Assembly (NCBI GenBank): GCA_963706575.1
Contig: CAVPNL010000005.1
Location: forward strand, 288,001-352,000
Length of the DNA stretch: 64,000 bases
Direction of reading: 5' to 3'
DNA from: an uncultured delta proteobacterium
GTDB lineage: Bacteria; Desulfobacterota; Desulfobacteria; Desulfobacterales; JAHEIW01
Position 1 is the stretch's first letter; each line of letters starts with the position of its first letter. The notes below the pieces were generated by a model. That model was given only the letters and a program-made list of their open reading frames with translations. It did no database searches and was not told where the DNA came from. Position numbers and translations under genes: made by a program. Of the stretch, positions 2,500 through 62,824 are shown one piece after another.

Positions 2500-3573
2500 A
2501 TGCCAAAAAAGGGACGAGTTGTTCTAATATTGTTATTGGTTGTGGTTTGTCTCAGCGCGTATGCGTATGGGGACAAAAGCGACGACGGGCGCGTCAACCT
2601 ATCAACTGTCTATTTCAAAAAAGATTCTGCGGGGATTGCAACGGAATTCGAAGATGACCTCAAGAAGGTTCAGGCAGCACTCGCAGCGGACCCAGCCATC
2701 GGTTTGCAAATAGAAGGCTATGGCCGGAATTCCGGCACACCTGAAAAAAATCGCACGATTTCGCAGAAACGAGCCGAGGCGGTGCAGCAGTGGTTTGTAA
2801 CCCACGGTGTCGATGCGAGTCGGATGGTGATCAAAAGCTTAGGCGATTCTGAGCCGGCAAGCGGGAAGGATAAGCCCGACGATCCCGCACTGGCCGAGCG
2901 CGTCGAGATTTTGCAGGTTTCTTTAAAACTGCCTTTGGCCCATCTGCCGGCCCTGCGTTATGAATTTGAGCCGATTTTGGAGGGCCGCCAAGTCACTCAC
3001 GATTTTGTCGTTCAGAACAAAGGTTCGGCAACGCTTGAGATTCAAAAAGTCAAAACCGACTGAGGATGCACGGCTGTCTCTTATACGAGGCAGATCCCTC
3101 CCGGCGGCGAGGGAAAAGTTACCCTGAAGGTTAGCACCAATCACAAAGGCGGCAAAAAAATACTAAAGAGCGCGACTATTTATACCAACGACAAAAAGAG
3201 TCCGCGACTGAAGCTTTCAATCATCGGAGAGGTTGAAAAATTTGTTACGATTCATCCCAGCCAGGTTCGATTGCATGGCGTTGCCGGACAAGTGCTAAAA
3301 AGAAGGGTGACCATCATACCCACACCAAAGTATCCTTTCAAAATCATAAAGACTCGTGTCAGGGAGGGCAAGGACATTTCCTATCAACTGTCGGAGGAAA
3401 AAAGTGAAAACGGGCACAAATATGCGCTGACCGTTGAAAATAAAAGGATACAGAAGGGGAGTTATTTCGATATCATTACGCTGGAAACCGACAGCAAGAT
3501 TCAGCCTGAACTTCAAATCCGAGTTTATGGTCAACTCCGGCAGCCAACTGAAAAAGAAAAAAAAGGTGATTAG
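2500..3573 (+). CDS. Exported OmpA-like plus DUF1573/Ig-like protein; predicted selenoprotein (Sec188, UGA 3061-3063), 357 aa
   Basis: ORFs 2500..3063 and 3271..3573 share one frame separated only by TGA. Read-through gives KVKTD-U-GCTAVSYTRQIPPGGEGKVTLKV, matching the DUF1573 'xCGCT...IPPG' pattern. Signal peptide and OmpA C-terminal motif (N..ISQKRAEAV) present. Confidence 0.8.
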
Positions 3574-11079: not shown

Positions 11080-11468
11080 TTACGATTCAGGCCATTTAAT
11101 GCCGTTGGACGGTTTGACGAGCTGTTTCCGAATAAACTCGTGAATCTGATCTGAAACATCTTTTGTCCAGGTAGCGAGCGACCCCGGCGCCGGTGCCAAC
11201 GGCGACCTGGGTAAAATTTCGATCCACCCGTTTAACTTCCACCGTGACGGGAGTACCATTCCCACGTCTTGCCAATATTTCGGTTCTTAATTCATCCGCT
11301 TTTTTCATTTAAAATAGATATTTCAAGATTTTCCAATGCATCCGTGCTGGCCTGAACCGCTTCATTATATTGCAATTGGTACGTTTTTATTAATTTGCCC
11401 TGAAGTTCGGCACAGCCGCCGGTCAACAGTGAAACAGACAGGCAGATGATGAGAAAGGCAGATTTCAT
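11080..11468 (-). CDS. DUF3568-like lipoprotein, split by two +1 frameshifts (probably sequencing errors)
   Basis: Lipobox LLTGGC; three overlapping ORF pieces (11292-11495, 11096-11308, 11080-11265) join into one protein of about 128 aa. Confidence 0.55.
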
Positions 11469-11678: not shown

Positions 11679-11694
11679 TGGCACGATGATTGCT
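11679..11694 (+). promoter_or_regulatory. Sigma54 (-24/-12) promoter of the cytochrome-rhodanese-otr module
   Basis: TGGCACGATGATTGCT matches TGGCAC-N5-TTGC exactly; AT-rich flanks and upstream TGTTAAC repeats. Confidence 0.8.
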
Positions 11695-11819
11695 ATTTAT
11701 TTTCTTATTTATAAGGTAGCAGCTATGAACCATCCTGCAAACTAGGCGATTGGCATTTAAATTTTCTACTTAAACTCAACAATTATAAATAAACAGAAAT
11801 TTCATTAAAAGGAGGAACC

Positions 11820-12165
11820 ATGTTCAAAAAGATATTTTTAACCATGTTGGCACTTGTTTTTTGTTTTCAGCACCGTGGGGGTCAGCTTTGCGCTGGATAA
11901 AGGCAACAAGCGCAAAGGCAAATACACCTACCGCAAAGTTTACAAGGCCTGTTTTGAGCGCGGAGAGGTTGAATCCAAGGTGCCGCCCATCAGCCCGGCC
12001 GACAAGACCCAGGCGGAGTGGACATCTGTTTTCGAGTCAAAGAAATTTGAGATGTTTGGATGCGATGAAGAGTGGGCACAACTGTCGGAAATTGAAGTTA
12101 CTGATATCTATACGTATTTGCATGATCATGCCTTTGATTCACCCACACCGGCGAAATGCAAATAA
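11820..12165 (+). CDS. Small exported cytochrome-c-like protein lacking a full CxxCH (one +1 frameshift in the signal peptide)
   Basis: AGGAGG RBS and ATG 11820 (MFKKIFLTMLAL) join ORF 11854..12165 across a T-run. GNKRKGKYTYRKVYKAC resembles a class I cytochrome c N-terminus; C-terminus HAFDSPTPAKCK. Confidence 0.55.
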
Positions 12166-12245
12166 CTGCAGGATTCCATCAGGGTCAATTAAAGGAGGGG
12201 GCGTTAATTCCGCTTTCAAACCCATAGAAAATAAAGAAGGAGGTT

Positions 12246-13366
12246 ATGATGCGTTTAACAAAATTGACGGCATTATCTTTTGTGCTCTGCCTAGTTCTGG
12301 CATTCGCTTTTGGATGTGCCGGCACCCAGAAGACAGCCGAGCCGGCCAAAGCCGACTGGCAGTTTCACGACATTGTGGATGTGGGGTTTGTGCAGCCGTA
12401 CGCCACGGTGCCCCAGCCCGAAGGGGTGATGATCATTGATGCGCGGCCCTATCAGCCCAAATACGCCAACGGTCACATTCCCACGGCCATCAGTATTCCG
12501 GACAGCCAGTTTGACAAAATGACCGACAAACTGCCCGAGGATAAGAATGCGCTTCTGATCTTTTATTGCGACGGCCCCACCTGAAAGCTGAGTCACAAAT
12601 CCGCCTGGAAGGCGGAAAAACTGGGTTACAGCAACGTTAAGGTGTTTGCCGCGGGTTTTCCGGCCTGGATGAAAGCCAAAGGCAATTATGCGGCGGTTTC
12701 CGTTGAATACGTGGCCAAACAGGTCGAGTCCAATGCAGGCCATCGTCATCGATTCACGGCCCAAAAAACCCAAGTATGACAAGGGCCATATTCCTTCGGC
12801 CATCAGCATTCCCGACAGCGAGTTTGACAAGCTGCAGGGCAAGTTGCCCCGGGACAGCGAAACACCGCTGATTTTTTACTGTGACGGTTTTACCTGAAAG
12901 TTGAGCCATCAATCCGCCCGGAGGGCGGTCCAGCTGGGCTATACGAATGTCAAGGTGTTTGCCGCGGGCTATCCGGCCTGGAAAAAGGCATACGGTGCAG
13001 CGCCGGCAGCCGTTGCGGTTAAGGCCGGCAGCGCAGAAGGCTCGATCGACATCGCCACCTTTGAAAAGATCATAAAAGAAAATCCGCAGAGCATTATGCT
13101 CATCGATGTGCGCGATCCCGATGAGTTTGCGGCCGGGTCGTTTAAAACCGCCGTTAATATTCCCACCGACGAACTGGAGAAAAAAATTCGCCACCCTGCC
13201 GGCAGATAAACCCATCGTGTTTGTCTGTAACACCGGTGCCAGAAGCGGTGAGGCGTTTTACATGGTCCAGGATATCCGGCCGGAGATGAAAAAGGTCTAT
13301 TACCTGGAAGCTGAAACGATCTATAACAAGGACGGATCGGTTAAGATTACCAAGCCGGCTTCCTAA
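12246..13366 (+). CDS. Three-domain rhodanese lipoprotein with two selenocysteines (UGA 12582-12584 and 12895-12897), about 372 aa; two +1 frameshifts
   Basis: Lipobox LAFAFGC. Domain 1 IFYCDGPT-U-KLSHKSA, domain 2 IFYCDGFT-U-KLSHQSA, domain 3 VFVCNTGARS. GHIP/IDARP rhodanese signatures; a SECIS hairpin follows each UGA. Confidence 0.88.
12600..12616 (+). promoter_or_regulatory. Bacterial SECIS hairpin (rhodanese Sec1)
   Basis: TCCGCCT-GGA-AGGCGGA, starting 15 nt after the UGA. Confidence 0.75.
12914..12928 (+). promoter_or_regulatory. Bacterial SECIS hairpin (rhodanese Sec2)
   Basis: CCGCCC-GGA-GGGCGG, with the loop at the same distance from the UGA as SECIS1 and a compensatory T-A to C-G closing pair. 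Confidence 0.75.
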
Positions 13367-13401
13367 CGTTTAATTGAATACAAGAATGCATAGAGACGAT
13401 T

Positions 13402-13429
13402 GCAGCCGTTCCTTCCGGGGACGGCTGCA
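13402..13429 (+). terminator. Hairpin after the rhodanese gene (weak terminator or stability element)
   Basis: GCAGCCGTTCC-ttcc-GGGGACGGCTGC with only a short U-tract. Confidence 0.45.
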
Positions 13430-13460
13430 TTCACTGATAAGCATAGGGGCTTTGCCCCAG

Positions 13461-13581
13461 TTGGAATGATGGAACAATGGAATGTATGGGATAATGGGTT
13501 TAAAAAAACTGAATTCAGAACGGCAAATTAAGCTTCTTTTCTTACCCAGTATTCCAATTTTCCACTATTCCATTATTCCAT
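13461..13581. repeat. Inverted short-tandem repeat (TGGAAT units versus ATTCCA units)
   Basis: TTGGAATGATGGAACAATGGAAT ... TATTCCAATTTTCCACTATTCCATTATTCCA. Confidence 0.65.
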
Positions 13582-13671
13582 GTGGCTGACAAAAACAGAT
13601 AGCCACAAAAAGTATTACAATTCCAAAAAGTTATAGAAATTCCGAGACGTTTAATTACAGGGGAGTCAACA

Positions 13672-15322
13672 ATGAAAGCAGTAGAAAAGAAGAATTCTTT
13701 TCTTAAATATATTATCCTGATAATGGCCGGGTTGATGCTGTGGTGTACCGTGTTATTTGCTGCACAGAGCGATGAGAGCCAGGCGCCCGGGCGCACCATG
13801 GCCCAGCAGGCCACCAAGGGCCAAAAGGTCTGGAATACCACCGATCATACCAAACACAAAGCCTTGCAGCAAGGATTTTAAATCCGGCCTGGAGGTCACC
13901 CAGGCCTGTCTTTCCTGTCATTCCGAAGCCGAAGCCCAGTTTCACAAAACCGATTCACTGGACCTGGCTGGCCGATCCGGCGGACAAAAACAAACAGTTC
14001 GGCAAAGCCGGAAATTCTCTCAATAATTTCTGTATTTCAACCAACAAAACCAAAGACAAGGGCTGTCTGTCCTGCCATCCGGGATGGGGCACCTCCAGGG
14101 ATAAGGGGATCAACTGTCTGGTCTGTCACAGTCGAAAAGGAAATGAACTGGGATGAAGCCATGACAGATATCAAGGCTTTTCTCGAAGCCGGCGATGAGG
14201 ATTCGCTGGAAATTGCCAGAGAGATCCAGGCCGAGCTGCGCGAAGCGGCCCAGAGCATGTGGTCGACCCGGCCGCAAAAATTGCGGGTCCTGCCATTTTT
14301 ACGGCGGCGGCGGTGACGGGGTGAAACACGGCGACCTGGATACCTCTCTGGCCAAACCCAATAAGGCCCTGGATGTCCACATGGGCGTCGACGGCCGCAA
14401 TTTTGACTTGTGTGCGCTGTCACACCACCAACCTGCATAATATTGCCGGTCGGGTTTATACACTGCCGGCGGCAGCGGAGCGCAAGAGCCTGGTGGAAGA
14501 TGATTTGGCCTCCAAGATCACCTGCGAATCCTGTCACACCCAGTACGCCCCACAAAGCCGGGTCCAAGGCCAACGATCATACGGACAAGGTGGCCTGCCA
14601 GAGCTGTCATATTCCGGAGTTTGCCCGGGTGAATCCCACCAAGATGTCCTGGGATTGGGCCCAGGCCGGCAGAAAAAAAGACGGCAAAAAATACAAGACC
14701 AAAGACGAGTTCGGCAAATTCGATTATATGACCATCAAGGGTCAGATGAAGTGGGCCAAAAATATCAAACCTGAATATCTCTGGTATAACGGCATCATTA
14801 AATCAGTGACGGCCAAGGATCAAATTGATCCCGGCCAGCCGGTAAAAGTTTCCTGGCCAGAGGGCAGCCGGTTGGATCCCAACGCCCGCATCTATCCGTT
14901 TAAAGTCCATCGCGGCAAACAGCCATACGACAAGGAGCACAATACACTGCTGGTACCGCTGCTGTCCGGCAAAGATGGTTACTGGACGACCCTGGATTGG
15001 AATCGGGCCCTGAGTAAAGGCCAGGAAGCTGTGGATCTGCCTTTTTCAGGCCGGTTTGATTTTGTGGAGACCACCTATGTATTTCCGATTACCCATATGG
15101 TGGCGCCCAAAGAAAACGCCCTGGCCTGCAGCGAGTGCCACAGTCGACAGGACAGCCGTCTGGCGAATCTGGGCGGTTTCTACATGCCCGGGCGGGATCG
15201 GGGTCAATTGGCTCGATATCTTGGGCTGGATCGCTGTGTTAGGCGCTTTAGCCGGGGTGGTTCTGCACGGCGCGGGTCGATTTTTTGCCAACGGCAAAAA
15301 CAACAAAAACAGCGCGAAATAA
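13672..15322 (+). CDS. otr: Octaheme tetrathionate-reductase (OTR)-family cytochrome c with C-terminal membrane anchor, about 547 aa; seven +1 frameshifts
   Basis: Reassembled frames give eight CxxCH motifs (CLSCH, CLSCH, CLVCH, CGSCH, CVRCH, CESCH, CQSCH, CSECH) and OTR signatures TTDH, IHWTW, NNFC, GGGGDGVKHGDLD, TKMSWDW, ITHMVAPKE; C-terminal TM WIAVLGALAGVVLH. Confidence 0.85.
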
Positions 15323-15362
15323 TTCATCGCCGTAAAAGGCTTGTCCTAATGGAACGCGGTAC

Positions 15363-15398
15363 AAAAAGGGGGTCCGCCCGAGGCGGATTCCCTTTTTT
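15363..15398 (+). terminator. Intrinsic terminator after otr
   Basis: AAAAAGGGGGTCCGCC-cga-GGCGGATTCCCTTTTTT. Confidence 0.75.
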
Positions 15399-15481: not shown

Positions 15482-15889
15482 ATGGGAAAACCAAAAATCC
15501 TGGTGGTGGATGACGAGCGTGACATGCGCATATTTGTCTCGACAGTCGCCGAAACCCTGGGTTTTGAAGCCATTGTTGCCAAAGATGGAGCCGAAGCGCT
15601 GCTGAAGGCGGGTTCGAACCCGCCCGCGCTGGTCATCCTTGATGTCATGATGCCGAAAATCGACGACGGCATCCAAACCTATCGGCAATTTAGAACCGAC
15701 CCAAATCTTTCGCATATACCGATAATCATGCTGTCGGCCATTGCAGAAAAAACCTTCTTGCACTCCATTAAAATGTTAAGCCCCCAGCAAGGCCATCAGC
15801 TGCCCGACCCCGAGGCCTATATGGAAAAACCACCGGATGCAAATGAGCTAAGCCGGCTGATAAGCACGCTGTTACCGGCCGATACTTAA
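15482..15889 (+). CDS. Single-domain response regulator (DVU0259/DivK-like)
   Basis: VVDDE, ILDVMMP, EKP receiver motifs; no output domain. Confidence 0.88.
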   Translation: MGKPKILVVDDERDMRIFVSTVAETLGFEAIVAKDGAEALLKAGSNPPALVILDVMMPKIDDGIQTYRQFRTDPNLSHIPIIMLSAIAEKTFLHSIKMLSPQQGHQLPDPEAYMEKPPDANELSRLISTLLPADT

Positions 15890-15919
15890 ATTTTTTGAAA
15901 CACCCCAAACGGTATAACC

Positions 15920-18196
15920 ATGGTCGCTGCATTTAAAAAAATTCGCAATAGTATTGTTTCAAAACTCACGATTCTGGTCGGTTTTGTCTTGCTGATCAGC
16001 ATATCGGTGTGGTCCTATTTTAACATCGACTATCAACAAAAGAAGGCGATGGCGGGCATCTTTGAAGCGGCTGATGGATTATCCCACGCCATCAAGCTCG
16101 GCACCCATTATGCCATGATGAACAATTTAAGGGATGATCTGACCCAGATCATCAAAAACATCGCCAGAGAAAAAAAGCTTAAAAACATACGGATTTACAA
16201 TAAAAACGGGGAAATAAAATTTTCAAACATGGATTCGGAACTGGATCGGATGACCAACATAAAAGATGAAGCCTGTTACATCTGCCACCGCACGGATCCG
16301 CCCCTTTCCGAACTGAACCTGTTGGAAAGAACGCGCATTTTTACCTCCCCTCAGGGCTATCGACTTCTGGGTATCATCAGCCCCATATACAGCGAGCCGG
16401 GGTGCGCATCGAGTGCTTGCCACGCCCATCCGGCTGACAAAAAGGTTCTAGGCGCCCTGGATCTGGTGATATCGCTGGACCAGACCGATAAAGAAATAGC
16501 CTTGTTTAAAAACTGGCTGATTGCTTTTGCGGTTTTTGTCTTTGTGATCACTTCGGCGGTGATCATCTTTTTTGTTTTGCGATTTGTGAAACGGCCCATC
16601 AAGCAAATGATAAACGGCACGCACCTGATTGCCAACGGCGAGTATTTGAATCAGATCGATGTGGATCAGGGTGATGAAATGGGGCAGCTGTCGGTTGCGA
16701 TTGACAAGATGGGCAAAAAAATCGGCGAAAAACAGGCCGAACTGAACCGGCAGCGCAATGAATACCAGAATCTGTTCGAACGGGTTCCCTGCATCATCAC
16801 GGTTCAGGATCGCGACTATAAACTGGTCCGGTATAATAAAGAATTTTATGAAAAATTCAAACCCAAGAACGGCGATTATTGTTACGCTGCCTATAAAGGT
16901 CGTAAGGAAAAATGCGTGATCTGCCCGGTTGAAAGAACCTTTGAAGACGGTTTATCGCACTTCAGCGAGGAAAGGGGGGTCAACAAGGATGGGACCCCTA
17001 CCCATTGGATTGTCAATACTTCTCCGATAAAAGATGAAAATGGTGAAATTGTGGCCGCCATGGAGATGAGTCTCGATGTCACCCAAACCAAAATACTGGA
17101 GGAACAACTCGAAAAATCCGAAAAAAAATACTACGCCATATTTGATAACATACCCAATCCGGTTTTTGTTCTGGATATGGATACCCTCAAGATCCTGGAT
17201 TGCAACACCAGCGTTGAAGGGGTTTATGGGTATACCAAGGATGAGATGATTGAAAGATCCTTTTTGGAACTGTTCAGGCAAGAAGAACACGATCATTACA
17301 GGACATTGATAAAAACGACCTCCGTCATAAACCAGGTCAGACATCTGAACAAAAATGGTGGCTCACTTTTCGTTGATATCCGGATATCACCCTCTGAATA
17401 TCCTGGAGAAAAAGTCTATCTGGTAACGACCAGCGATATTACCCAACGGCTGGAAACCGAACAGCAACTCATACAGGCCAGCAAAATGGCAACTTTGGGC
17501 GAAATGGCCACAGGCGTGGCGCATGAGCTCAATCAGCCCCTTTCTGTCATCAAGACGGCCAGTCAGTTTTTTATGAAAAAGATCCGCAAAAAAGAAAAGA
17601 TCGAAGATGATATTCTGTTTAGCATGACAGAGGAGATCGATGCCTATGTTGACCGTGCCGCCAAAATCATCAATCACATGCGCCAATTTGGACGAATGTC
17701 GGATATCACCCTGGAAAAAATTCAGGTTAACACGGTGCTGAAAAATGCGCTCGAAATCCTGGGACAACAGCTGAAAGTCAGGGGAATCGAGGTGATCTGG
17801 GATCTTGAGGATGATCTTCCTTTGATCATGGCGGACTCTGATCGGCTGGAACAGGTTTTTGTCAATCTATTGATTAATGCGCGGGATGCCATCGATGAAC
17901 GCTGGCAATCGCAACCCCATCAAAAGGGTGACAAAAAAATTATTTTGAAAACGAAATCAGGTCCCCGTGAGATTGCCGTGGAGATCAGAGATACGGGAGC
18001 GGGGATCCCGGATCCTATTTTAGAGCGAATATTCGAGCCGTTTTTTACGACCAAAAAAGTGGGGCAGGGTACCGGTCTGGGTCTTTCCATAAGTTACGGA
18101 ATCATCAAGGATTGTAAAGGCCGCATTCAGGCCGTCGCCCGCAAAGATGGCGGCGCCGGTTTTATTATCAAATTTCCCATTGCGGAAGAAGACTGA
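15920..18196 (+). CDS. Sensor histidine kinase: periplasmic heme-c-motif domain, HAMP, PAS-PAS, HisKA-HATPase
   Basis: Two TM helices flank CYICH and CASSACH; HAMP DEMGQL; H-box [14 protein letters not shown]. Confidence 0.9.
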
Positions 18197-19335
18197 TGGA
18201 AAAATCCATTTTACTCGTTGATGATGAAGGCGGCATTCGCAAGGTGCTCGGCATCGCCCTGGCGGATATGGGGTACCAGGTGCGTACTGCCGAAAATGGT
18301 GTGGAAGCCCTGCGCATATTCAAAGATGAGCTGCCGCCGATTGTGCTGACCGATATTAAAATGCCCGAGATGGATGGTATTGAGCTTTTGCGCCGCTTAA
18401 AAAAAATAAGCCCGGATACGGAAGTCATCATGGTTACCGGTCACGGCGATATGGATCTGGCCATTAAAAGCGTTAAATATGAAGCCACCGATTTTGTCAC
18501 CAAACCCATCAACGCTGAAGTGCTGGAAATTGCCTTAAATCGCGCGCAGGAACGAATTGCCATGCGTCGAAAAATCAATGAATACACCCAAAATCTTGAA
18601 CAGCTGGTGCGGGATAAGACCCAAAAACTTCTTGAAGCCGAGCGGCTGGCGGCTGTCGGGCAAACGGTAGCGGGGCTTTCACATGCCATAAAGAATATTA
18701 CCGGGGGTCTTAAAGGGGGTGCATTTGTACTGGAAAAAGGGATCGAGCTCAGTGATCAAAAATATTTGCTGCAGGGCTGGGAAATGATCAGGGGTAATGT
18801 CGATAAGATTACCAACCTGTCTATGGATTTGCTCAATTATGCCAAAGCGACCGACCTGAATGTTCAGCCCTGTGATCCCAGGCAACCGGCTCAGGAAGTC
18901 ATTGATCTCATGCACCCGCGGGCGCAGGAACTGGGCATTGAACTGGTCAGCGATTTTTCGCAAAATCTTAGTCCCTGTCAGTTTGATTCGGATCTCATTT
19001 GCCGCTGCCTGCTGAACCTGGTGACCAATGCCATTGATGCCTGCAGGAATGATAGCCCGGACGCCCCAGCCAAAATGGTGACTGTCCGCATAAAAAAAAC
19101 CCGCGGCTGGGGGGTTGAATACCAGGTGCTGGATAATGGCTGCGGCATGAACGCTGCCACCCAAAAGAACATCTTCAAACAGTTTTTTTCGACCAAAGGG
19201 TCTGAGGGTACCGGCATTGGGCTGATGATCACCAAGAAAATAGTCGATGAACATAACGGTGTGATCAAAGTTGAATCGAAAGAAGGTGCCGGTTCCAAAT
19301 TTTTCATCAAACTCCCCAAAAAGCCAGATGAATGA
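18196..19335 (+). CDS. Receiver-histidine kinase hybrid
   Basis: LVDDE, LTDIKMP receiver followed by SHAIKN H-box and GTGIGL. Confidence 0.9.
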   Translation: MEKSILLVDDEGGIRKVLGIALADMGYQVRTAENGVEALRIFKDELPPIVLTDIKMPEMDGIELLRRLKKISPDTEVIMVTGHGDMDLAIKSVKYEATDFVTKPINAEVLEIALNRAQERIAMRRKINEYTQNLEQLVRDKTQKLLEAERLAAVGQTVAGLSHAIKNITGGLKGGAFVLEKGIELSDQKYLLQGWEMIRGNVDKITNLSMDLLNYAKATDLNVQPCDPRQPAQEVIDLMHPRAQELGIELVSDFSQNLSPCQFDSDLICRCLLNLVTNAIDACRNDSPDAPAKMVTVRIKKTRGWGVEYQVLDNGCGMNAATQKNIFKQFFSTKGSEGTGIGLMITKKIVDEHNGVIKVESKEGAGSKFFIKLPKKPDE

Positions 19336-21052
19336 AATTCTCATAAAATACCGCCAGCTCGGCGACATTTTCGACACCTTTTCTATGGGGGTGATGGTCG
19401 TGGGGGCGGATCACAAAATCATCTCGTTGAACCATTCCGCCGAACTGATTACCGGTTACAACGAGTCTGATCTGCGCGGTAAATACTGCAACCAAATATT
19501 GCTTGATCCTTTATGCGGTGGTGAGTGTCAGTACTTGGCGGCAGTTGAAAGCAGCCGGCAGGCCAGCAGCGTGGATTTTGAGGTCAGCGATCAAAGTAAT
19601 GACAAGCACAGTATCACCCGGATCGTATCCCCCATTTATGGTTCGGACCACACGCCTCTGGGCTGCATCGAAGTTTTTCAGGATCATACCGTCTTCAAGG
19701 ATCTTCTTGAACGCGTCAGGCATGATGACCGGCGCCTAAAAATCATCCTGGATAACCTTGACCTCGGCGTGTTGACCGTTGATCGTGGGGGTCATATTAC
19801 CTTTTTCAATAACCGGGCTGAAACCATCACCGGATTTAACCGGGGGGATGTCCTGGGAAAATCCTGCAGCATGATCTTTGGTAAAACCGCCAGTCAGGAC
19901 CTGTTGCTGCTTAACGAAACCATTGCCGACGGCCGTGCGCGTTCGACCACCGAAGGAGAGATCAAGACCCGAGAAGGGCAGGCCATTCCCATGCGCGCCA
20001 ATTACATGGCGCTTAAAAATGAAGATGGACGCATTGTCGGTGGCCTGGCAACCGTTGCTGATTTATCGTTGAAGTATCAATTTAACAGCGAAATAAAAGG
20101 CCGCTATACCTTTTATGATATGGTTGGCAAAGATCCGGCCATTCAGAAAATTTTTGAAATTGTGCCCGTAGTGGCTTCAAGCGATGCCACCATCCTGATC
20201 GAAGGCCCGACCGGCACCGGAAAAGATGTTTTAGCGAAGGTCATTCACAACGCCAGTCAGCGTTCAAAAAAGCCGCTGGTCAAAGTAAACTGCGCGGCAT
20301 TGCCGGATAATCTTCTCGAATCAGAGATGTTTGGTTATGTTAAAGGGGCCTTTACCGGAGCAGAAAAGGATAAACCGGGCAGATTCCAGGAAGCAGACGG
20401 CGGGACTATTTTTCTGGATGAAATCGGAGACCTGCCTCTATCGCTGCAGGCCAAGTTGTTGCGGGTGCTGGAAGACAAAGAATTTTATCCCCTGGGCAGC
20501 AGAAAAACCACCAAAGTGGATGTGCGTATCATTTCAGCCACCAACCAAAACCTGGGGCAGCTGGTTGCAGAAAAACGCTTTCGCGAAGATCTTTTCTACC
20601 GGCTGAATGTGATGCGGCTGGATTTGCCCCCTCTGAAAGATAGGAGGGGTGATATTCCGCTTTTAATATCCCATATTTTAAAGCGGCTGTGTGCAACCCG
20701 GGATACGATGGTTGAAAAATTTTCCAACGATGCCATGGAAGTGCTTCTGAATTACGATTATCCCGGAAATGTCAGAGAACTTGAAAACATCATCGAGCAT
20801 GCCCTGATTGTCTGTCAGGATAAAATCATTGAACGAATCCATCTGCCCCTTTCACTCCAGGACGGCATTTCATCTCCGTTGCCGGCAGAAGAAAAACGAC
20901 CGTTTGATAGAGAAATCGAATTCAGCGAGAAAACCCTCATTTTAGATACGCTGAGAAAATACAACTGGAATAAAGGCAAAACCGCCTCGGCCCTCGATAT
21001 CAACCGCACCACCCTGTGGCGTAAGATTAAAAAATACAATATTTCCTATTAA
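19328..21052 (+). CDS. PAS-PAS sigma54-dependent activator with CX8CX3C motif (OrpR-like)
   Basis: GPTGTGKD, GAFTGA, FLDEIG, Fis-type HTH; CNQILLDPLCGGEC in PAS1; ATG 19328 overlaps the upstream gene end. Confidence 0.9.
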   Translation: MNEILIKYRQLGDIFDTFSMGVMVVGADHKIISLNHSAELITGYNESDLRGKYCNQILLDPLCGGECQYLAAVESSRQASSVDFEVSDQSNDKHSITRIVSPIYGSDHTPLGCIEVFQDHTVFKDLLERVRHDDRRLKIILDNLDLGVLTVDRGGHITFFNNRAETITGFNRGDVLGKSCSMIFGKTASQDLLLLNETIADGRARSTTEGEIKTREGQAIPMRANYMALKNEDGRIVGGLATVADLSLKYQFNSEIKGRYTFYDMVGKDPAIQKIFEIVPVVASSDATILIEGPTGTGKDVLAKVIHNASQRSKKPLVKVNCAALPDNLLESEMFGYVKGAFTGAEKDKPGRFQEADGGTIFLDEIGDLPLSLQAKLLRVLEDKEFYPLGSRKTTKVDVRIISATNQNLGQLVAEKRFREDLFYRLNVMRLDLPPLKDRRGDIPLLISHILKRLCATRDTMVEKFSNDAMEVLLNYDYPGNVRELENIIEHALIVCQDKIIERIHLPLSLQDGISSPLPAEEKRPFDREIEFSEKTLILDTLRKYNWNKGKTASALDINRTTLWRKIKKYNISY

Positions 21053-21193
21053 TTTTGATTTCCCATGTCCGTGTTCTGATAATCCCGCTCTGAGGGTATC
21101 ATACCAATCCCGCTGTCATATCCCAAAGATATTGCTGAAAATGAATCAAAAGATAGAATAGCGCATTAAAATGATGCATAATGATGCATTGAG

Positions 21194-21358
21194 TGTTGCA
21201 TTTCATTGCAATCATTCTTTTTATGTTGTTTAAGATCAAATAAAAATTATAACTTACTATAAATATTAAATAATAAGTTATAAGTGCACATAATTACTCG
21301 CATAATTAGAACCGTTAATCGATCCCACTAGGCAAACTGGTGTTGCATTTATGCAACG
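21194..21358. promoter_or_regulatory. Candidate enhancer (UAS) palindromes TGTTGCA-N4/6-TGCAAC
   Basis: TGTTGCAtttcatTGCAATCA (21194) and TGTTGCAtttaTGCAACG (21341), 100-270 nt upstream of a sigma54 site. Confidence 0.6.
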
Positions 21359-21457
21359 TTTGTCTCAGCCATTTTATCCTAACCATCAGGTCAGCTTTAT
21401 ATTTAACATATTAAAATTATTATTTAATTTAATATTTTGGTTTCAAAAAAGACTTTC

Positions 21458-21473
21458 TGGCACGTTTGATGCT
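21458..21473 (+). promoter_or_regulatory. Sigma54 promoter of the usp-tmc operon
   Basis: TGGCACGTTTGATGCT (GG-N10-GC). Confidence 0.75.
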
Positions 21474-21552
21474 CAGGGTATTGACAGGCAGTTGATCAAA
21501 TCGATCAAAACAGAAACCATAAACCGCAGGTTGCAACAATTGAGAGACCGCC

Positions 21553-22086
21553 ATGAATGCTGTTACCCTAAAAAAAGATGGCGCCATTAACCTCAACGGA
21601 AAAACAGTGGCAACTGAGGCGCTCGATTTACTCAGCTGCCAGATCGCGCTTGAAGACGTTTACACCCTGAGAAGTTTCTTTAAGATGCTAAATAAATATA
21701 CGCTGCTTGCAAAGCTGAATGCTTTTTCTCCCTCCTCTATCGAGCAGTACGATAGCTGTCCGGAACAGGGATGCGATGCGGGTTTGCTCGACTATCTTGA
21801 ATTCGGCAAAACGGTCGAGATGATCGGCGTTCCGGACAAGCGCCTGGAGATCTACAACTCTCTTTTTGGCGTCCAGGCCGGGGAGACCACTGAGATTAAG
21901 TCCATGCAGTTAGCCAGTCTGCTGGATTTACCGCTCAAGCTCGGCAAACTGAAACACATCGTTTTCGGAGACCGCGTCGACATCTTCGAATTTGACACGG
22001 TGTACACGCTGTTTGAATTCATCGATGGGATTGCGTGGCAACTGGGCTTCCACGCCACCCCGGAACAATGCGAGTTAAGGAGGTAA
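21553..22086 (+). CDS. Hypothetical protein, first gene of the tmc operon
   Basis: 177-aa ORF directly after the sigma54 promoter and tightly coupled to the usp gene. Confidence 0.65.
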   Translation: MNAVTLKKDGAINLNGKTVATEALDLLSCQIALEDVYTLRSFFKMLNKYTLLAKLNAFSPSSIEQYDSCPEQGCDAGLLDYLEFGKTVEMIGVPDKRLEIYNSLFGVQAGETTEIKSMQLASLLDLPLKLGKLKHIVFGDRVDIFEFDTVYTLFEFIDGIAWQLGFHATPEQCELRR

Positions 22087-22089
22087 GCT

Positions 22090-23013
22090 ATGTTTAAAAA
22101 AATCCTTTTTGCCACAACGGCTTCCCCCACCTGCGATAATGCCGCCAAGGTGGCCTTTGATCTGGAATTGAAATGGGACGCGAAGCTTTATGTCTTTCAC
22201 GTACTGGGCATCCCGAGTCGCGGTTATAGCCCATTTGTTACCGACGTGAGAACCGGTGAGCTCATGGAGCCGGATGCGGATTATATCGAGTGGGTCAGAG
22301 AAGAAATGAAAAACACCTACGGCGCATTGCTGGCCGACAGTGAAAATTCCGTGATTGAAGCTGCCGTCGGGGTCCCCTACCGGGAAATCCTAAGAAAGGC
22401 CCGCAAGGAAGACATTGATCTCATCATTATGGGGGCGCATACCCGGCAGGAGGATGTCGGTGCGACGCGCTACCGCAGCATCGTTGGAAGTACGATGCAA
22501 AAGGTCGCCAAATCCGCCCGCTGCCCGGTGGTTATCATCAGCCGGCCGTGCACCACCTGTTGGAAGTTGTTTTCCAATATTGTTTTCGGAACCGATTTTT
22601 CCAAGGCCGCGGATTATGCTTATAAGTGGGCTTACGGCTTAGCCAAACAAGTCGGTGCCAAGCTGCATCTTTTTCACGCCTGCGATATCAACACGAGCGC
22701 GGCCGGAGTGGTGATGGGGCAAGCGGAGATTGAAAATCAGATTCAAACGGCCAAGCAAAAGATAGAAAAGCGCTATATCGCCAAGATGAATGGATATGAC
22801 AATTTTGAAGTCGAAGTCCGTGAAGGAATTCCGTATGTTGAAATATTGAAGTTCGCTCGTGAAAAGACAGGCGATCTCATTGTTATGGCCCATCATACCC
22901 GGGAGATCGATCCCGAAAAAGCGGTATTGGGAAGCACGGTCGAGCAGGTGGTGTTGCGATCCGCCTGCCCGGTGGCCAGCGTTAATCATCCTGACAAAGT
23001 CGCTGATCTATAA
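22090..23013 (+). CDS. Tandem-domain universal stress protein
   Basis: Two USP repeats (KILFAT...DLIIMG...GST; NIVFGTDFS...DLIVMA...LGSTVEQV). Confidence 0.9.
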   Translation: MFKKILFATTASPTCDNAAKVAFDLELKWDAKLYVFHVLGIPSRGYSPFVTDVRTGELMEPDADYIEWVREEMKNTYGALLADSENSVIEAAVGVPYREILRKARKEDIDLIIMGAHTRQEDVGATRYRSIVGSTMQKVAKSARCPVVIISRPCTTCWKLFSNIVFGTDFSKAADYAYKWAYGLAKQVGAKLHLFHACDINTSAAGVVMGQAEIENQIQTAKQKIEKRYIAKMNGYDNFEVEVREGIPYVEILKFAREKTGDLIVMAHHTREIDPEKAVLGSTVEQVVLRSACPVASVNHPDKVADL

Positions 23014-23058
23014 GTCTTCAATTTCAGCAACGGTCATAGTCAGGGATGGAGTTTGTAT

Positions 23059-23454
23059 ATGAAAAAGAAAACGGTTCTTATCGTCGAAGATGAATTGGAT
23101 ATGAGAATTTTCATATCCACCCTGCTTGAAACCAGCGGATATCAACCGATTATGACCCGAGATGGAACCGAAGGCCTGCTCAAAGCCAAAGACATTAGAC
23201 CGGATCTGATCATTTTAGATGTGATGATGCCCGGAGAGGGCGGAGTTCAGATGTACCGGCAGCTAAAAACCGATAAGACCCTGTGTGACATACCGGTGAT
23301 CATGCTTTCAGCCGTGACCCGCAAAACATTTGCCCATTATTTAAATATGGTCAACGCACGGCTGAAAGATGCCATACCGGATCCGGACGCCTATATCGAA
23401 AAACCGCCGGAAGCAGAAGATTTGCTGAAAATGACCACCGCTCTCATCGGTTAG
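23059..23454 (+). CDS. Single-domain response regulator
   Basis: IVEDE, ILDVMMP, EKP; paralog of 15482 and 42213. Confidence 0.88.
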   Translation: MKKKTVLIVEDELDMRIFISTLLETSGYQPIMTRDGTEGLLKAKDIRPDLIILDVMMPGEGGVQMYRQLKTDKTLCDIPVIMLSAVTRKTFAHYLNMVNARLKDAIPDPDAYIEKPPEAEDLLKMTTALIG

Positions 23455-23523
23455 CATCATCTTTACCAAAGCGGGCTACACAGGGTGGTCCTAAAGCCAA
23501 ACCAAGCAAAGAGGAGTCGATCA

Positions 23524-24783
23524 ATGCTTACACGAATTGACTGGGATTGGGAGCCCGGCAGCAGAGATATTGCGAATATCAGCCAGTGGCAAAGAAAGTT
23601 TAACTGGGTCGAGGAACCCTATGCCAGTCCGAATGGTGAAAAAATAGCCGCCATTGTTAACCTGGCAGAAGGCGAATTCAATGTCTGTGTTAACGGTGAT
23701 ACCTGGCAGACGGTTTTTGATAAAATCTGGAATCTGCGGTTTGCGCCCGATGGCCGGCTAACTGCCATTGTGTCTGAAACGGGTGAATGGACCGTGGCGG
23801 TGGACGGCACACCCTGGGATAATAGATTCGGATATGTCTGGAATCTGATGTTTAGCCCCGACGGGAACAACATCGCTGTCGCGGTGCAGCAGGATATGGC
23901 TTACGGCATGGCGTTAAATAACGCCGTCTGGGAGGAAACCTTTTCCAATATGACCCACCCCACCCTCAGTCCGGACGGCACCCGGACCGCAGCCGCCGTT
24001 CAGGTGGCCGATTTTGGCGAAGGCGAAATTCATAAATTCCAGGAGGGCGTTTTCAGCGCTGCCCTGGACGGCACACCCTGGGACACGCAGTTTGTCAATG
24101 TCTGGGAAATGGCCATTAGCGCTGACGGCCAAAAACTGGCGGCCGAGGTCCGGCTCAATCTTTACGATTATACGATTGCCGTCAATGGAATACCCTGGGA
24201 ACAAACCTTTGATTGTGTCTGGCAGCCGATTTTTCATCCGCAGAACGGTGCCGTGATCGCTCCCGTCAGGACCGGTGGCGGTTGGTTTCTGGCGCAGGAC
24301 GGACAGATTATCTGGGATCGGAAATTCGTGCAGCTCTGGCATCCGATGGTCAGCAAAAACAGCAAAAAACTGGCGGCCATCGTTGCGCCCAAATATGGCA
24401 AATGGACCATCGCGGTCGACGGCAAGCCCTGGTCCGTTTTATTTGGGGATTTGCTGACGGATCCGGTTTTTAGCCCCGATGGCAACCGGGTAGCGGCGGT
24501 CGCCAAAAATGATGGGCACTGGCGGGTTGTCGTCGACGGCGTGGTTTGGCAAAATACTTTTGATCGCGTCTGGCCGCCGGTCTTCAGCGCCGGCAGCGAA
24601 GCGGTTGCCGTGAAAATCGAAAGAAACGGTAAATACAGTATCGCCCTAAATGATCGCGTATGGGATCAAGCGTGCGATGCCATCTGGGATCCCGTATTCA
24701 GCCCTGAGGGCGATAAAATTTTGCTGCGGACTTTGCAGGATGGCATCTATATGCGCAGCGTTTTATCCGTCGAAGATATTTGA
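23524..24783 (+). CDS. tmcD: Tmc complex subunit D (Trp-rich beta-propeller-like repeats)
   Basis: Repeated FSPDG...AA...WTVAVDGxPW units; lies directly upstream of tmcCBA; GAGGAG RBS. Confidence 0.8.
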   Translation: MLTRIDWDWEPGSRDIANISQWQRKFNWVEEPYASPNGEKIAAIVNLAEGEFNVCVNGDTWQTVFDKIWNLRFAPDGRLTAIVSETGEWTVAVDGTPWDNRFGYVWNLMFSPDGNNIAVAVQQDMAYGMALNNAVWEETFSNMTHPTLSPDGTRTAAAVQVADFGEGEIHKFQEGVFSAALDGTPWDTQFVNVWEMAISADGQKLAAEVRLNLYDYTIAVNGIPWEQTFDCVWQPIFHPQNGAVIAPVRTGGGWFLAQDGQIIWDRKFVQLWHPMVSKNSKKLAAIVAPKYGKWTIAVDGKPWSVLFGDLLTDPVFSPDGNRVAAVAKNDGHWRVVVDGVVWQNTFDRVWPPVFSAGSEAVAVKIERNGKYSIALNDRVWDQACDAIWDPVFSPEGDKILLRTLQDGIYMRSVLSVEDI

Positions 24784-24801
24784 CGCTAAAGAGGGGGGTG
24801 C

Positions 24802-25461
24802 ATGAACACGATATACAATTTTGTGAGTGGCCCGTTAGCCTGGCTGGCATTTATTCTTTTCATCGGCGGCAGCCTTTACCGGCTCATAAGCCTGATGGTG
24901 CTGGTCCATAAAAAAGAAAAATTTATTTACTCTTACATGAGCTTGAAATACGGCCTGCGTTCCATTCTTCGCTGGAGTACGCCCTTTGCCACCGAAAATA
25001 TGCGAAGGCATCCGGCGTTGACGATCGCCACCTTTGCCTTTCACATCTGCCTGATACTGACGCCGATTTTTTTACTGGCACATGTGACCCTGATCGATGA
25101 ATCCTGGAACCTCAGCTGGTGGACGCTGCCCGACGGTGCGGCGGAGATCATGACCTTGATCGTTATTGCCGCTTGTGTTTTTTTCCTTGTACGGCGCTTG
25201 GTCAATCCGGAAGTTCAATATGTCACCTCAGCATCGGATTATATTATCCTGGGTATCGTGGCGGCACCGTTTATTACCGGATTTTTGGCCTATTACCAGT
25301 GGTTTGGGTATCAGGTATTTCTGATTCTGCATATCCTTTCAGGAGAAGTTATGCTGGTGGCCATTCCGTTTACGCGGTTGAGCCACATGCTGTTTGCACC
25401 GCTGACCCGGGCTTATATGGGCTCGGAATTCGGGGGGATCAGGCATGCTAAAGACTGGTAA
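24802..25461 (+). CDS. tmcC: Tmc complex membrane cytochrome b subunit (NarI-like)
   Basis: Five TM helices with His ligands (FHI, AHV, LHI, SHM) and IPFTRLSH. Confidence 0.85.
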   Translation: MNTIYNFVSGPLAWLAFILFIGGSLYRLISLMVLVHKKEKFIYSYMSLKYGLRSILRWSTPFATENMRRHPALTIATFAFHICLILTPIFLLAHVTLIDESWNLSWWTLPDGAAEIMTLIVIAACVFFLVRRLVNPEVQYVTSASDYIILGIVAAPFITGFLAYYQWFGYQVFLILHILSGEVMLVAIPFTRLSHMLFAPLTRAYMGSEFGGIRHAKDW

Positions 25462-25470
25462 GTGCAAAGA

Positions 25471-25570
25471 TGAATATCGAATATCGAACAAGGAATGTAG
25501 AAGTAAGAAGTATTTTGGTTCGTCAATACTTCGACATTCATAATTCCTTGTTCGGTGTTCTGCGGTTCAA
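25471..25570. repeat. Inverted 7-mer repeat hairpin between tmcC and tmcB
   Basis: GAATATCGAATATCGAACAAGGAAT ... ATTCCTTGTTCGGTGTTC. Confidence 0.65.
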
Positions 25571-25602
25571 CTAAAACAGATTAAACAAAAGGAATTGAGA
25601 CA

Positions 25603-26940
25603 ATGGCTGAGCCTGCAAAGCAAATTGAAAGGAAAATCGTGGATGAAGGCCTGGAAGTCGGTGTACAAAATCTGACCGAAGAACGGATCACAAAAGTGAT
25701 CAACCGCGTTTTAAAGGGTGAATCCGGCGCGCGCCTCAAAGCCTATGTCAATACCTGTATCCACTGCGGTCTGTGTTCCGAAGCCTGCCACTATTATCTT
25801 TCCCACGATAATAACCCGCAATATTCACCGGTGGGGAAAGTCAAACAAACCCTGTGGGAAATGCTAAAAACCAAAGGCAAAGTCAGTGCCGATTTTATCA
25901 AAAGAGCCTCTCTGATTGCCTCCACGGAGTGCAACGCCTGTAAGCGCTGTGCCATGTATTGTCCCTTTGGAATTGATATCGCCTACATGATGCTTACCGT
26001 AAGGCGCATCTGTCATCTACTGGGCGTAACCCCACTGTATATTCAAGATACGGCCCACAGTCATGCGGTTACCATGAACCAGATGTGGGTCAAAGATGAC
26101 GAGTGGATTGATACCCTGCAGTGGCAGGAAGAAGAGGCCCAGGACGAAATCCCCACCCTGCGGATCCCGCTTGAAAAAGAAGGGGCAGATATCATGTATT
26201 CGGTCATCGGCCCGGAACCCAAATTCCAGGCCCAGCTGATTTATCAGGCCGCGGTCATTATGGATGTGGCCGGTGTCAACTGGACAATGCCTGCCACCCC
26301 CGGCTGGGATAATAGCGATATGGCCATGTATACCGGCGACAATGAAATTATGGGGCGCGTAAAGCGGACTCATTTCGAAACCGCTCTTCGATTAAGGGTT
26401 AAACGGATTGTCATGGGTGAATGCGGCCATGCGTTTCGCTCGGTTTATGATATGGGCAACCGCTGGCTGGGATGGCGCATGCCCCCCATACCCGTCGTGC
26501 ATGCCATTGATTTCTACTATGAATTGATCAAAGACAAAAAGATCACGATTGCTGAAAAATTTAAAGAGCCCGTTACCCTGCACGATCCGTGTAATGTGAT
26601 TAGGGGCGGCGGTCTGGCAGAAAAGGCCCGCTATGTGGTCAATGCCATCTGTGAACAACTGATCGAGATGCACCCCAACCGCGAACACAATTACTGCTGC
26701 TGCGCCGGCGGTGGGGTCATCAATTGCGGGCCGCCTTACAAAAACACCCGCATGGATGGCAACCGCATTAAGGCCGAACAGTTATTTGCGGCCAAATCCA
26801 GGGGCGCCAAGATACTGATCGCGCCCTGTCACAATTGCCACAGCGGCCTTGAAGATATCAACCATCACTATGGCCTCGGTTATGACATTAAATTTATCAG
26901 CGATATTCTTTATGATGTTATGGAAAAGGAGACCGCATGA
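25603..26940 (+). CDS. tmcB: Tmc complex Fe-S/CCG-domain subunit
   Basis: [44 protein letters not shown]. Confidence 0.88.
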
Positions 26941-61774: not shown

Positions 61775-62824
61775 ATGATCGATTTGAAAAAGCCGCGCTT
61801 GACCGAAACCGTGGCCGGTTCCGGGTGAGCTTCCAAGCTGCCGCCAGGGGACCTGGAGCAAGCATTGTGCGGGTTGGAGATTCCAACCAACGAGCGTGTG
61901 ATTGTCGGCATGGACAGTCTGGACGATGCCGGCGTATATAAAATTTCCGATGATCTGGCCATTATCCAGACCGTGGATTTTTTTACACCGATTGTAGACG
62001 ACCCGTACTGGTTCGGCCAAATCGCTGCCGCCAATGCGCTGAGCGATATCTACGCCATGGGCGGGACTCCCAAAACAGCCATGAATCTGGTGGGCTTTCC
62101 GCTGAAGCAAATGGATATCTCAATTTTGCGGCAGATCCTTCAGGGCGGTCTGGATAAAATGAAGGAGGCCGGTGTCATGCTGGTGGGGGGGCACAGCGTG
62201 GAAGACAGCGAGCTGAAATACGGCCTTTCAGTGACCGGATTCGTCCATCCGGACCGCATTCTGACAAAGAAGAATTTAAACGCCGGTGATCGTCTTGTGC
62301 TAACCAAGCCACTCGGCACCGGTGTTATCAATACGGCCATTAAAGGCGGCGTGGCTTCAGTCAAAGTAATTGATAAGATAACTCGATTGATGGCAACGCT
62401 TAACCGGAATGCGGCTGAGATAATGAAACAATATTCGGTGCACGCCTGCACGGATATTACCGGTTTCGGCTTGCTGGGGCATCTGGCAGAGATGGTGGAC
62501 GGTACCGGGCTGGGTGCCGTCCTGGATTCTAAAAGAATTCCCATCTTGTCTGAGGCTGTGGATTACGCGGCCATGGGGATGCTGCCGGCGGGTGCAAATA
62601 AAAACAAGATCTTTCGGGAGTCGATGGTTGAATTTTATTCTTCCGTGAACCCGCTGATACGGGATCTTTTATTTGATCCCCAGACATCCGGTGGTTTGCT
62701 GATCTGCATCGATAGGGATGACTCCGATGAACTGGTTGAGGAGCTTATTCAAAAAGGCAGTGACTCATCGGCCGTTATTGGAGAGGTGGTTTCAGCACCG
62801 CAAGAGAAAATTGTGGTCAATTAG
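61775..62824 (+). CDS. selD: Selenide, water dikinase; Sec-containing form (U18, UGA 61826-61828), 349 aa
   Basis: AAGGAG RBS, MIDLKKPRLTETVAGSG-U-ASKL in frame with ORF 61865..62824 (DDAGVY, QTVDFFTP, GGHS, TDITGFGLLGH, DPQTSGGLL). Confidence 0.95.
61844..61856 (+). promoter_or_regulatory. Bacterial SECIS hairpin of selD
   Basis: CCAGG-GGA-CCTGG, starting 15 nt after the UGA. Confidence 0.75.

Follow-up and report, generated by a model that had tools for sequence, protein, structure and literature searches.

A conserved sigma-54 unit linking a likely selenocysteine rhodanese to an OTR-family octaheme cytochrome c as a candidate periplasmic sulfane-sulfur reductase

The locus described here encodes three exported proteins, a small haem-less protein, a rhodanese lipoprotein that very likely contains selenocysteine (Sec) and an OTR-family octaheme cytochrome c, in the genome (5.67 Mb) of an uncultured delta proteobacterium, a marine organism and, as judged by the presence of dsrA, a sulfate reducer. 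It lies in a stretch of 64,000 nucleotides (nt; forward-strand positions 288,001–352,000 of contig CAVPNL010000005.1, assembly GCA_963706575.1), termed the window, whose positions serve as coordinates. The three genes and their flanking signals are:

11679–11693, + strand: sigma-54 (−24/−12) consensus TGGCAC-N5-TTGC, from the sequence
11820–12165, + strand: gene for the small exported protein, from alignment to intact relatives
12246–13366, + strand: gene for the rhodanese lipoprotein, with rhodanese domains by Pfam
13672–15322, + strand: gene for the OTR-family octaheme cytochrome c (otr), recognised as consecutive pieces of TIGR04315
15363–15397, + strand: intrinsic terminator-like hairpin of 16 pairs with a T run, from the sequence

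A first-pass annotation of this DNA had described a perfect sigma-54 promoter, three co-oriented exported proteins and a closing terminator, and this layout stands. Export signals, judged by eye from the sequence, are a signal peptide in the small protein, a lipobox (AFGC) in the rhodanese and a signal peptide in OTR. The strict sigma-54 motif occurs 25 times on both strands of the genome, and in 52 of 67 related loci a slightly relaxed form precedes the first detected gene by no more than 450 nt (approximately 0.04 expected per 450 nt), the misses being mostly loci whose first gene lies further upstream. The box is a conserved consensus promoter, putative in its activity.

The gene-neighbourhood survey that the first-pass annotation had proposed supports the linkage. 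Among 80 related, and thus non-independent, loci found with a rhodanese alignment and ranked by similarity, otr lies directly downstream of the rhodanese in 70, and the small protein gene is the gene before the rhodanese in 70. In 150 genomes drawn evenly from the order, with arrangements counted by hand from coordinates, otr is directly downstream of 27 of the 43 rhodanese copies. Ten further copies lie within approximately 6 kb of an OTR-domain gene: nine are 4–5 kb after a fused OTR-domain gene (the molybdoenzyme-cluster arrangement described below) and one has otr upstream. The other six have none near, two of these at contig ends. Each of the three genes is represented in RNA-library contigs of relatives, two of which join the small gene to the rhodanese; such contigs reveal neither a single transcript nor its level. 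By gene order and promoter motif, the three genes form a conserved sigma-54 unit.

The units of relatives include two further genes that the first-pass annotation had missed. In 52 of the 70 loci the gene after otr encodes a membrane cytochrome b, with the thiosulfate reductase subunit PhsC as its best NCBIfam match (below cut-off); of the remaining 18 loci, 13 are cut off by a contig edge and five are genuinely without this gene. In 49 of the 70 the unit is preceded by a divergent sigma-54 activator, and other genes are DsrE-like (21 loci), DUF3373 (15), TusA (3) and YeeE (2). These partners bear on the proposal that OTR detoxifies or respires nitrite or hydroxylamine, with the sulfur-transfer genes as co-regulated passengers. 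Nitrite and hydroxylamine do give the highest OTR activities in vitro (PMC12949373), and OTR has been proposed as a nitrite reductase in Deferribacter (PMC6896113; papers are cited by PMC identifier). However, no nitrogen-oxide gene occurs among the identified neighbours at the 80 loci, screened with a fixed set of reference proteins, and the partners are of sulfur-carrier types, leaving this proposal with very little probability.

The rhodanese family also occurs in clusters with a PhsA/PsrA-like molybdoenzyme, an iron-sulfur (FeS) subunit and TorD. One sister cluster (L036:4665-13353, with L038 and L039) encodes a HybA-like FeS protein, a 1095-residue NrfD-tetrahaem-OTR fusion with 12 haem motifs, a haem-bearing small protein, a PhsA/PsrA-like enzyme, an FeS subunit, a two-Sec rhodanese and TorD. 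The fusion passes TIGR04315 and is present in most sister clusters of this genus, so the idea that OTR simply replaces the molybdoenzyme is too simple. In a quick tree the window rhodanese falls in a supported set that mixes OTR-type and molybdoenzyme-type clusters; on this evidence the rhodanese moves between the two. In one genome (G035; L026, L039) the rhodanese copies of the OTR cluster and the molybdoenzyme cluster are nearly identical, which suggests recent duplication or gene conversion. A three-rhodanese secreted lipoprotein, RS06465, similar by description, is encoded in the Psr operon of Desulfurivibrio dismutans, an operon upregulated in sulfur disproportionation (PMC12142623).

The sister clusters are also similar to the MOLY cluster (molybdoenzyme A, B, TorD), and genes likened by type to YTD occur in some operons; both are proposed markers of disproportionation (PMC12998232). 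It is nonetheless decidedly unlikely that the unit serves sulfur disproportionation or runs oxidatively, mobilising periplasmic elemental sulfur and passing electrons into the quinone pool: the locus has no molybdoenzyme, the best match in the genome to the sister enzyme is 32% identical, and the YTD cluster is also found in non-disproportionators (PMC12998232). The partner genes as a whole (PhsC-like cytochrome b, DsrE, TusA, YeeE and the PhsA/PsrA-like enzyme) support a sulfur role for the unit, in agreement with the first-pass annotation.

The rhodanese is a three-domain lipoprotein with the loops C-x4-U, C-x4-U and CNTGAR. The two in-frame UGA codons each form the last position of a C-x4-C/U loop, where Cys alternates in homologues, and each is followed by its own selenocysteine insertion sequence (SECIS)-like hairpin:

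12582–12616, + strand: first UGA codon (12582–12584), aligned to Cys in homologues, and SECIS-like hairpin (12600–12616; −11.3 kcal/mol)
12895–12929, + strand: second UGA codon (12895–12897), aligned to Cys in homologues, and SECIS-like hairpin (12913–12929)

Across the 80 loci the two loops are Cys/Cys in 63, Sec/Cys in 11 and Sec/Sec in five, with one sequence cut short. Of 15 distinct UGA contexts, 13 have a CCGCC-loop-GGCGG hairpin downstream, versus 6 of 122 Cys contexts, with mean energies of −10.6 and −6.9 kcal/mol, respectively, in sequences that are related and hence non-independent. The genome encodes selA, selB, selD and tRNA-Sec. The rhodanese therefore very likely contains two selenocysteines, as the Sec-rhodanese of the first-pass annotation implied. 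The selD gene lies in the window (61796–62719) and itself carries an in-frame TGA. An intact two-Sec orthologue scores below the cut-offs of the named Sec-rhodanese models (TsoB NF045694, 119.5 against 805; NF041203, 79.8 against 115), and Sud is not among the 11 PDB matches of the rhodanese at E ≤ 1e-6.

The first-pass annotation had also offered selenite as a substrate. The haem selenoenzyme MccSep reduces selenite in vitro (PMC13510729), and YeeE relatives match the selenium-metabolism YedE models, below cut-off; MccSep, however, prefers polysulfide (PMC13510729), Sec content is uninformative as to the substrate, and both loops carry Cys in those 63 of 80 homologues. Reduction or detoxification of selenite by the unit is thus unsupported, and we regard it as the most improbable of the functions considered.

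The window OTR has a signal peptide, eight CXXCH motifs and a C-terminal hydrophobic helix (mean hydropathy 2.08) with an LHG motif. Its pieces cover TIGR04315 positions 38–105, 135–195, 185–227 and 229–440 in order, each alone below cut-off. An intact orthologue (87% identical) scores 528.9 bits against the cut-off of 375 and matches PDB 1SP3 with an E value of 5e-100, confirming the family membership that had been proposed. Lys56 and Cys64 (numbering counted from the 1SP3 alignment), which we take to be the haem 2 ligand and an active-site residue, respectively, are kept in position in the segment GKAGNSLNNFC at 14001. The C-terminal hydrophobic helix is present in all 58 complete rhodanese-linked OTRs, with the His motif in 56; among 37 readable OTRs drawn across the phylum, it is found in 14 of 17 with a cytochrome b and in none of 20 without.

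In the phylum-wide draw (L157–L196; 40 loci, comprising 39 of the 41 above cut-off and one below), 18 of 40 OTRs have a UGA codon at the conserved N-N-F/Y-C cysteine, equivalent to Cys64 of 1SP3. These occur on several branches, and the UGA forms have stronger downstream hairpins than the Cys forms; selenocysteine OTRs are thus probably widespread. Exchange between Cys and Sec usually indicates a catalytic redox residue, and the recurrence of UGA at this position on several branches implies that Cys64 is likely a catalytic nucleophile. A Sec-containing TIGR04315 protein (WP_331457571.1) is already listed, as a GenBank annotation, in a table row of PMC13188914. Sec is absent from all 70 rhodanese-linked OTRs, and no rhodanese match was found at any of the 18 Sec-OTR loci. 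Mutual exclusion of Sec-OTR and Sec-rhodanese was considered and rejected, because the linked OTRs form one branch and the pattern counts as approximately one event; the OTR tree comprised a random 20 of the 61 complete linked sequences, that of the close relative G019 and all 40 phylum loci. In one genome (G329:C72:76777-81003) a rhodanese-linked Cys OTR is followed, after approximately 1.5 kb, by a UGA-bearing OTR.

Selenocysteine at Cys64 also bears on a second sulfur chemistry, molybdenum-free thiosulfate reduction, in which the rhodanese would split thiosulfate into sulfite and a persulfide, the C-x4-U pair would release sulfide, and an OTR haem would reduce the sulfite. A ttr otr double mutant accumulated sulfite slightly, and the authors suggested that OTR is a sulfite reductase (PMC12949373); the PhsC-like cytochrome b, and the YeeE, TusA and DsrE genes of some related operons, would also fit. 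However, the organism already has DsrA, and Sec at Cys64 in 18 of 40 OTRs fits nucleophilic cleavage of an S–S bond better than oxyanion binding, by an argument made for another enzyme (PMC13510729). We therefore consider thiosulfate and sulfite reduction unlikely. S–S bond cleavage is instead indicated by the UGA codons at Cys64 together with the presence of the rhodanese in polysulfide- and thiosulfate-reductase-like clusters.

The first-pass annotation had called the small protein (approximately 114 residues) cytochrome-like, which is probably right by descent but not as regards a covalently bound haem: the window copy has no CXXCH (YxxCF in its place). In all 120 best homologues the first Cys of the haem motif is replaced by Tyr, while the His is kept in six, and CXXCH is lost in all 70 copies found beside a rhodanese that is followed either by otr or by the end of the contig. 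Of the six CXXCH-bearing copies, five are in molybdoenzyme clusters and one is in a rearranged otr cluster. Alignable CXXCH-bearing relatives match PF13442/PF00034. The small protein is also encoded by the cultured Desulfosarcina widdelii. The structural model (pLDDT 88) gives a weak best match to a diheme cytochrome c (2fwt; Z 5.3, root mean square deviation 3.0, 63 aligned residues), the structure matches among the rows listed are mostly cytochromes c, and Foldseek returned no match at E ≤ 0.001. A class I cytochrome c fold is predicted. For lack of CXXCH, a role as monohaem electron carrier at this locus was rejected, although haem may still be bound non-covalently or through a single Cys.

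Three Cys residues of the small protein are invariant in 97 aligned sequences, one of them in a C-terminal PTPAKCK tail. By analogy, it would be a sulfur carrier like SoxY; a divergent soxY adjoins otr in lucinid symbionts (PMC11237559). Complex prediction for the rhodanese with the small protein (from two species) gave 0.32 versus 0.00 for the best control, with at least 90% contact agreement between runs and partner pLDDT of at least 86. This lends weak support: 116 of 157 solved complexes and two of 215 mismatches attain that mark, but at values of at most 0.60 only 18 solved complexes do, along with both mismatches.

With moderate confidence, we propose that the unit is a periplasmic, membrane-anchored and quinol-fed sulfane-sulfur reductase, for which polysulfide or polythionates are the likeliest substrates. 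The sigma-54 activator (divergent in relatives, on another contig, C6, in this genome) would switch the unit on. The PhsC-like cytochrome b (also on C6 here) would oxidise menaquinol and pass electrons to the OTR haem chain via the His-bearing C-terminal helix. The rhodanese lipoprotein would bind sulfane sulfur as a persulfide, acting as Sud does for polysulfide reductase (Sud has a high affinity for polysulfide; PMC6378623), and the C-x4-U pairs of the rhodanese would attack or resolve S–S bonds. The C-terminal Cys of the haem-less small protein would carry either sulfur or a disulfide between the rhodanese and OTR. At its Cys64 site, by haem 2, OTR would reduce the bound sulfur and release sulfide or thiosulfate. 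Precedent for polysulfide reduction by Sec plus haem exists in MccSep (PMC13510729).

Several observations weigh against this proposal. The rhodanese–otr link is present in only 27 of the 101 OTR-positive genomes of the order, none of the 40 phylum-wide OTR loci has a rhodanese directly upstream, and the rhodanese-linked OTRs occupy one side of one branch of the OTR tree, i.e. the link is lineage-bound. In G019 (L044:2909-3022, L016:6978-7450) the small protein and rhodanese are split from otr, the break, real or a mis-assembly, lying in the repeat-bearing spacer. The activity, induction and transcript of the unit are all inferred from sequence, and because the cytochrome b of this genome lies on another contig, with the activator and a degenerate promoter box, its electron input can only be extrapolated from relatives. 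Electron transfer from menaquinol to polysulfide is uphill, which makes polythionates the easier acceptor. The density of frameshifts in the three genes is approximately 20 times that in the rest of the assembly (ten in 3.1 kb versus 31 insertions in 202 kb), and very recent gene loss would be invisible to pairwise comparison of non-synonymous and synonymous substitution rates (dN/dS). Among sequencing runs screened for the source reads, the best contained a fraction of 0.27 of the sequence words, short of one half. In vitro, OTRs are mainly nitrite and hydroxylamine reductases, and deletion of otr left tetrathionate use unchanged in Shewanella ANA-3 (both PMC12949373). The first-pass suggestion that OTR makes thiosulfate from tetrathionate thus lacks support, as does selenite, whereas the conserved unit, Sec, OTR and the sulfur role are supported. 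In sediment, however, otr was up 36-fold at day 8 after tetrathionate addition (PMC8528874), and the in vivo data on OTR, a rise in sediment versus an unchanged deletion phenotype in Shewanella, are in conflict.

The first-pass annotation had noted frameshifts in otr and held that a pseudogene there would refute its proposal. Such shifts are seen, yet all three genes are affected: relative to intact relatives there are ten, all net +1 and with no premature stop, one in the small gene, two in the rhodanese gene and seven in otr. Located by alignment to relatives, they are:

near 11853–11859, + strand: extra base in the small gene
near 12736 and 13190, + strand: extra bases in the rhodanese gene
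near 13872, 13952, 14135, 14260, 14406, 14543 and 15206, + strand: extra bases in otr

Their density, together with the location of the partner genes on another contig, is what a decaying pseudo-operon, severed from its cytochrome b and activator, would present. This we consider very unlikely. None of the ten changes is a deletion, all eight haem motifs and both UGA hairpins survive, and dN/dS is 0.12–0.15 (small gene), 0.19–0.23 (rhodanese) and 0.12–0.15 (otr), like the controls between relatives (0.11–0.19). A survey of 291 open reading frames from 400 kb of a congener (G005), 182 of which aligned well enough for comparison, revealed an insertion bias in this assembly, with 31 single-base insertions (202 kb) versus nine deletions and a net shift in 27 of the 182 genes. 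Extra bases are also found in the neighbouring opposite-strand gene and in spacers, and the relatives' contigs lack bases at the frameshift places. On these grounds, the frameshifts are most likely long-read assembly errors. The opposite-strand gene (window 11096–11308, − strand) is small and conserved, has no Pfam match, and contains one base too many in comparison with two relatives.

The proposed sulfane-sulfur reductase of this genome appears displaced relative to those of its congeners. The activator and the PhsC-like cytochrome b are adjacent on C6 (G000:C6:946973-949350; L156), 318 nt apart and with a degenerate promoter box; the pair is 75% identical to the congeners' flanking genes, and no trace of the three genes was found between them. 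Conversely, the window site is empty in all four congeners that have both flanks, which lie 0.7–1.1 kb apart without the operon. Since the partners sit together on C6 and the window site is empty in congeners, the three-gene block appears to have moved or been re-acquired in this lineage. Absence of an adjacent cytochrome b is shared with the five other related loci noted above. Downstream of the operon, in its host site (window 15482–26940), are a response regulator, two kinases and a sigma-54 activator, followed by tmcD, tmcC and tmcB, above cut-off; the regulators (15482–21052) are unlikely to be dedicated to the operon, because the four congeners keep both flanks without it. Elsewhere on C6 (G000:C6:852233-856839), TusA-like and DsrE-like genes surround a membrane protein and an FeS protein, and this DsrE-like protein shares 67% identity with the type that relatives encode upstream of the operon.

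The spacer between the rhodanese gene and otr contains two further features, a hairpin and a repeat, both recognised by the first-pass annotation:

13398–13432, + strand: GC-rich hairpin without a T tail, after the rhodanese gene (−26 kcal/mol)
approximately 13451–13590, no strand assigned: dispersed inverted-repeat element, found at 26 genomic places

The hairpin is present in two of four relatives checked and absent from the terminator list. Having no T tail, it was rejected as a terminator, and, as each UGA has its own hairpin, as a SECIS; it possibly serves in mRNA stabilisation or processing. The repeat is built of TGGAAT-like units, and the element is also abundant in sediment contigs. 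Given its 26 genomic places and its absence, by a motif test, from all 70 related rhodanese–otr spacers, it lies outside the system; being dispersed and skipped by the relatives' contigs, it was also rejected as a regulatory part. Near the start of the window (2500–3063) is an open reading frame with an OmpA domain, whose 38 C-terminal residues align with the beginning of the OS_HP2 (seleno)protein model NF041425; the frame may extend past a UGA.

For twenty years OTR has had no settled natural role, and a 2026 deletion study reports none in tetrathionate respiration (PMC12949373). Of 151 genomes sampled from this order, whose members are sulfate reducers of sediments, 101 contain OTR genes. 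Metagenome studies routinely score these genes as ‘tetrathionate reduction’, and their function therefore affects the genome-based reading of sulfur-intermediate cycling. The partner set of quinol-oxidising cytochrome b, Sec rhodanese and Cys carrier, together with Sec at Cys64, makes specific substrates, residues and partners testable, and the OTR family would probably gain a testable role in extracytoplasmic S–S reduction. More tentatively, OTR octahemes might in general be thiol/selenol S–S reductases and the operon a molybdenum-free counterpart of polysulfide reductase, with selenium placed in OTR Cys64 or in the partner rhodanese and a cytochrome c that has lost its haem as a SoxY-like carrier; this possibility is doubtful at present, but if it is true, common marine sulfate reducers respire sulfur-cycle intermediates by an undescribed route. 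We found no description of the operon in the open-access papers retrieved; supplements and subscription papers (e.g. Mowat 2004) may bear on it.

Each part of the system belongs to or resembles a known family, and Sec-OTR is already known as an annotation. The rhodanese U-K-L-S fits the UxxS motif, the only feature compared, of rhodanese selenoprotein ‘form 1’ (WP_010941598.1; table row in PMC13188914); in contrast to the one Sec listed there, two Sec residues in three domains are predicted here. As in Geobacter sulfurreducens MccSep (ExtKL) with ExtH, a periplasmic multihaem enzyme, Sec and a rhodanese-like lipoprotein are encoded in one cluster. The cytochrome family differs, however (the intact OTR orthologue has no ExtKL model match at E ≤ 1e-5), and Sec is in the rhodanese, whereas the window OTR has Cys. 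The window OTR shares eight CXXCH motifs and the Lys56 and Cys64 positions with Shewanella oneidensis OTR (PDB 1SP3; TIGR04315), but, unlike that protein, which is described as soluble (PMC12949373), it has a His-bearing C-terminal membrane helix and a cytochrome b as partner, and its gene lies downstream of those for a rhodanese and a small Cys protein. Wolinella Sud/Psr, the D. dismutans Psr operon and the MOLY cluster likewise place a secreted rhodanese beside a quinone-linked periplasmic reductase. Sud is a single-domain dimer. The molybdopterin subunit, FeS subunit and TorD are absent at the present locus, and, in contrast to Psr, Phs and MOLY, the catalytic partner here would be a multihaem cytochrome and the rhodanese has two C-x4-U loops.

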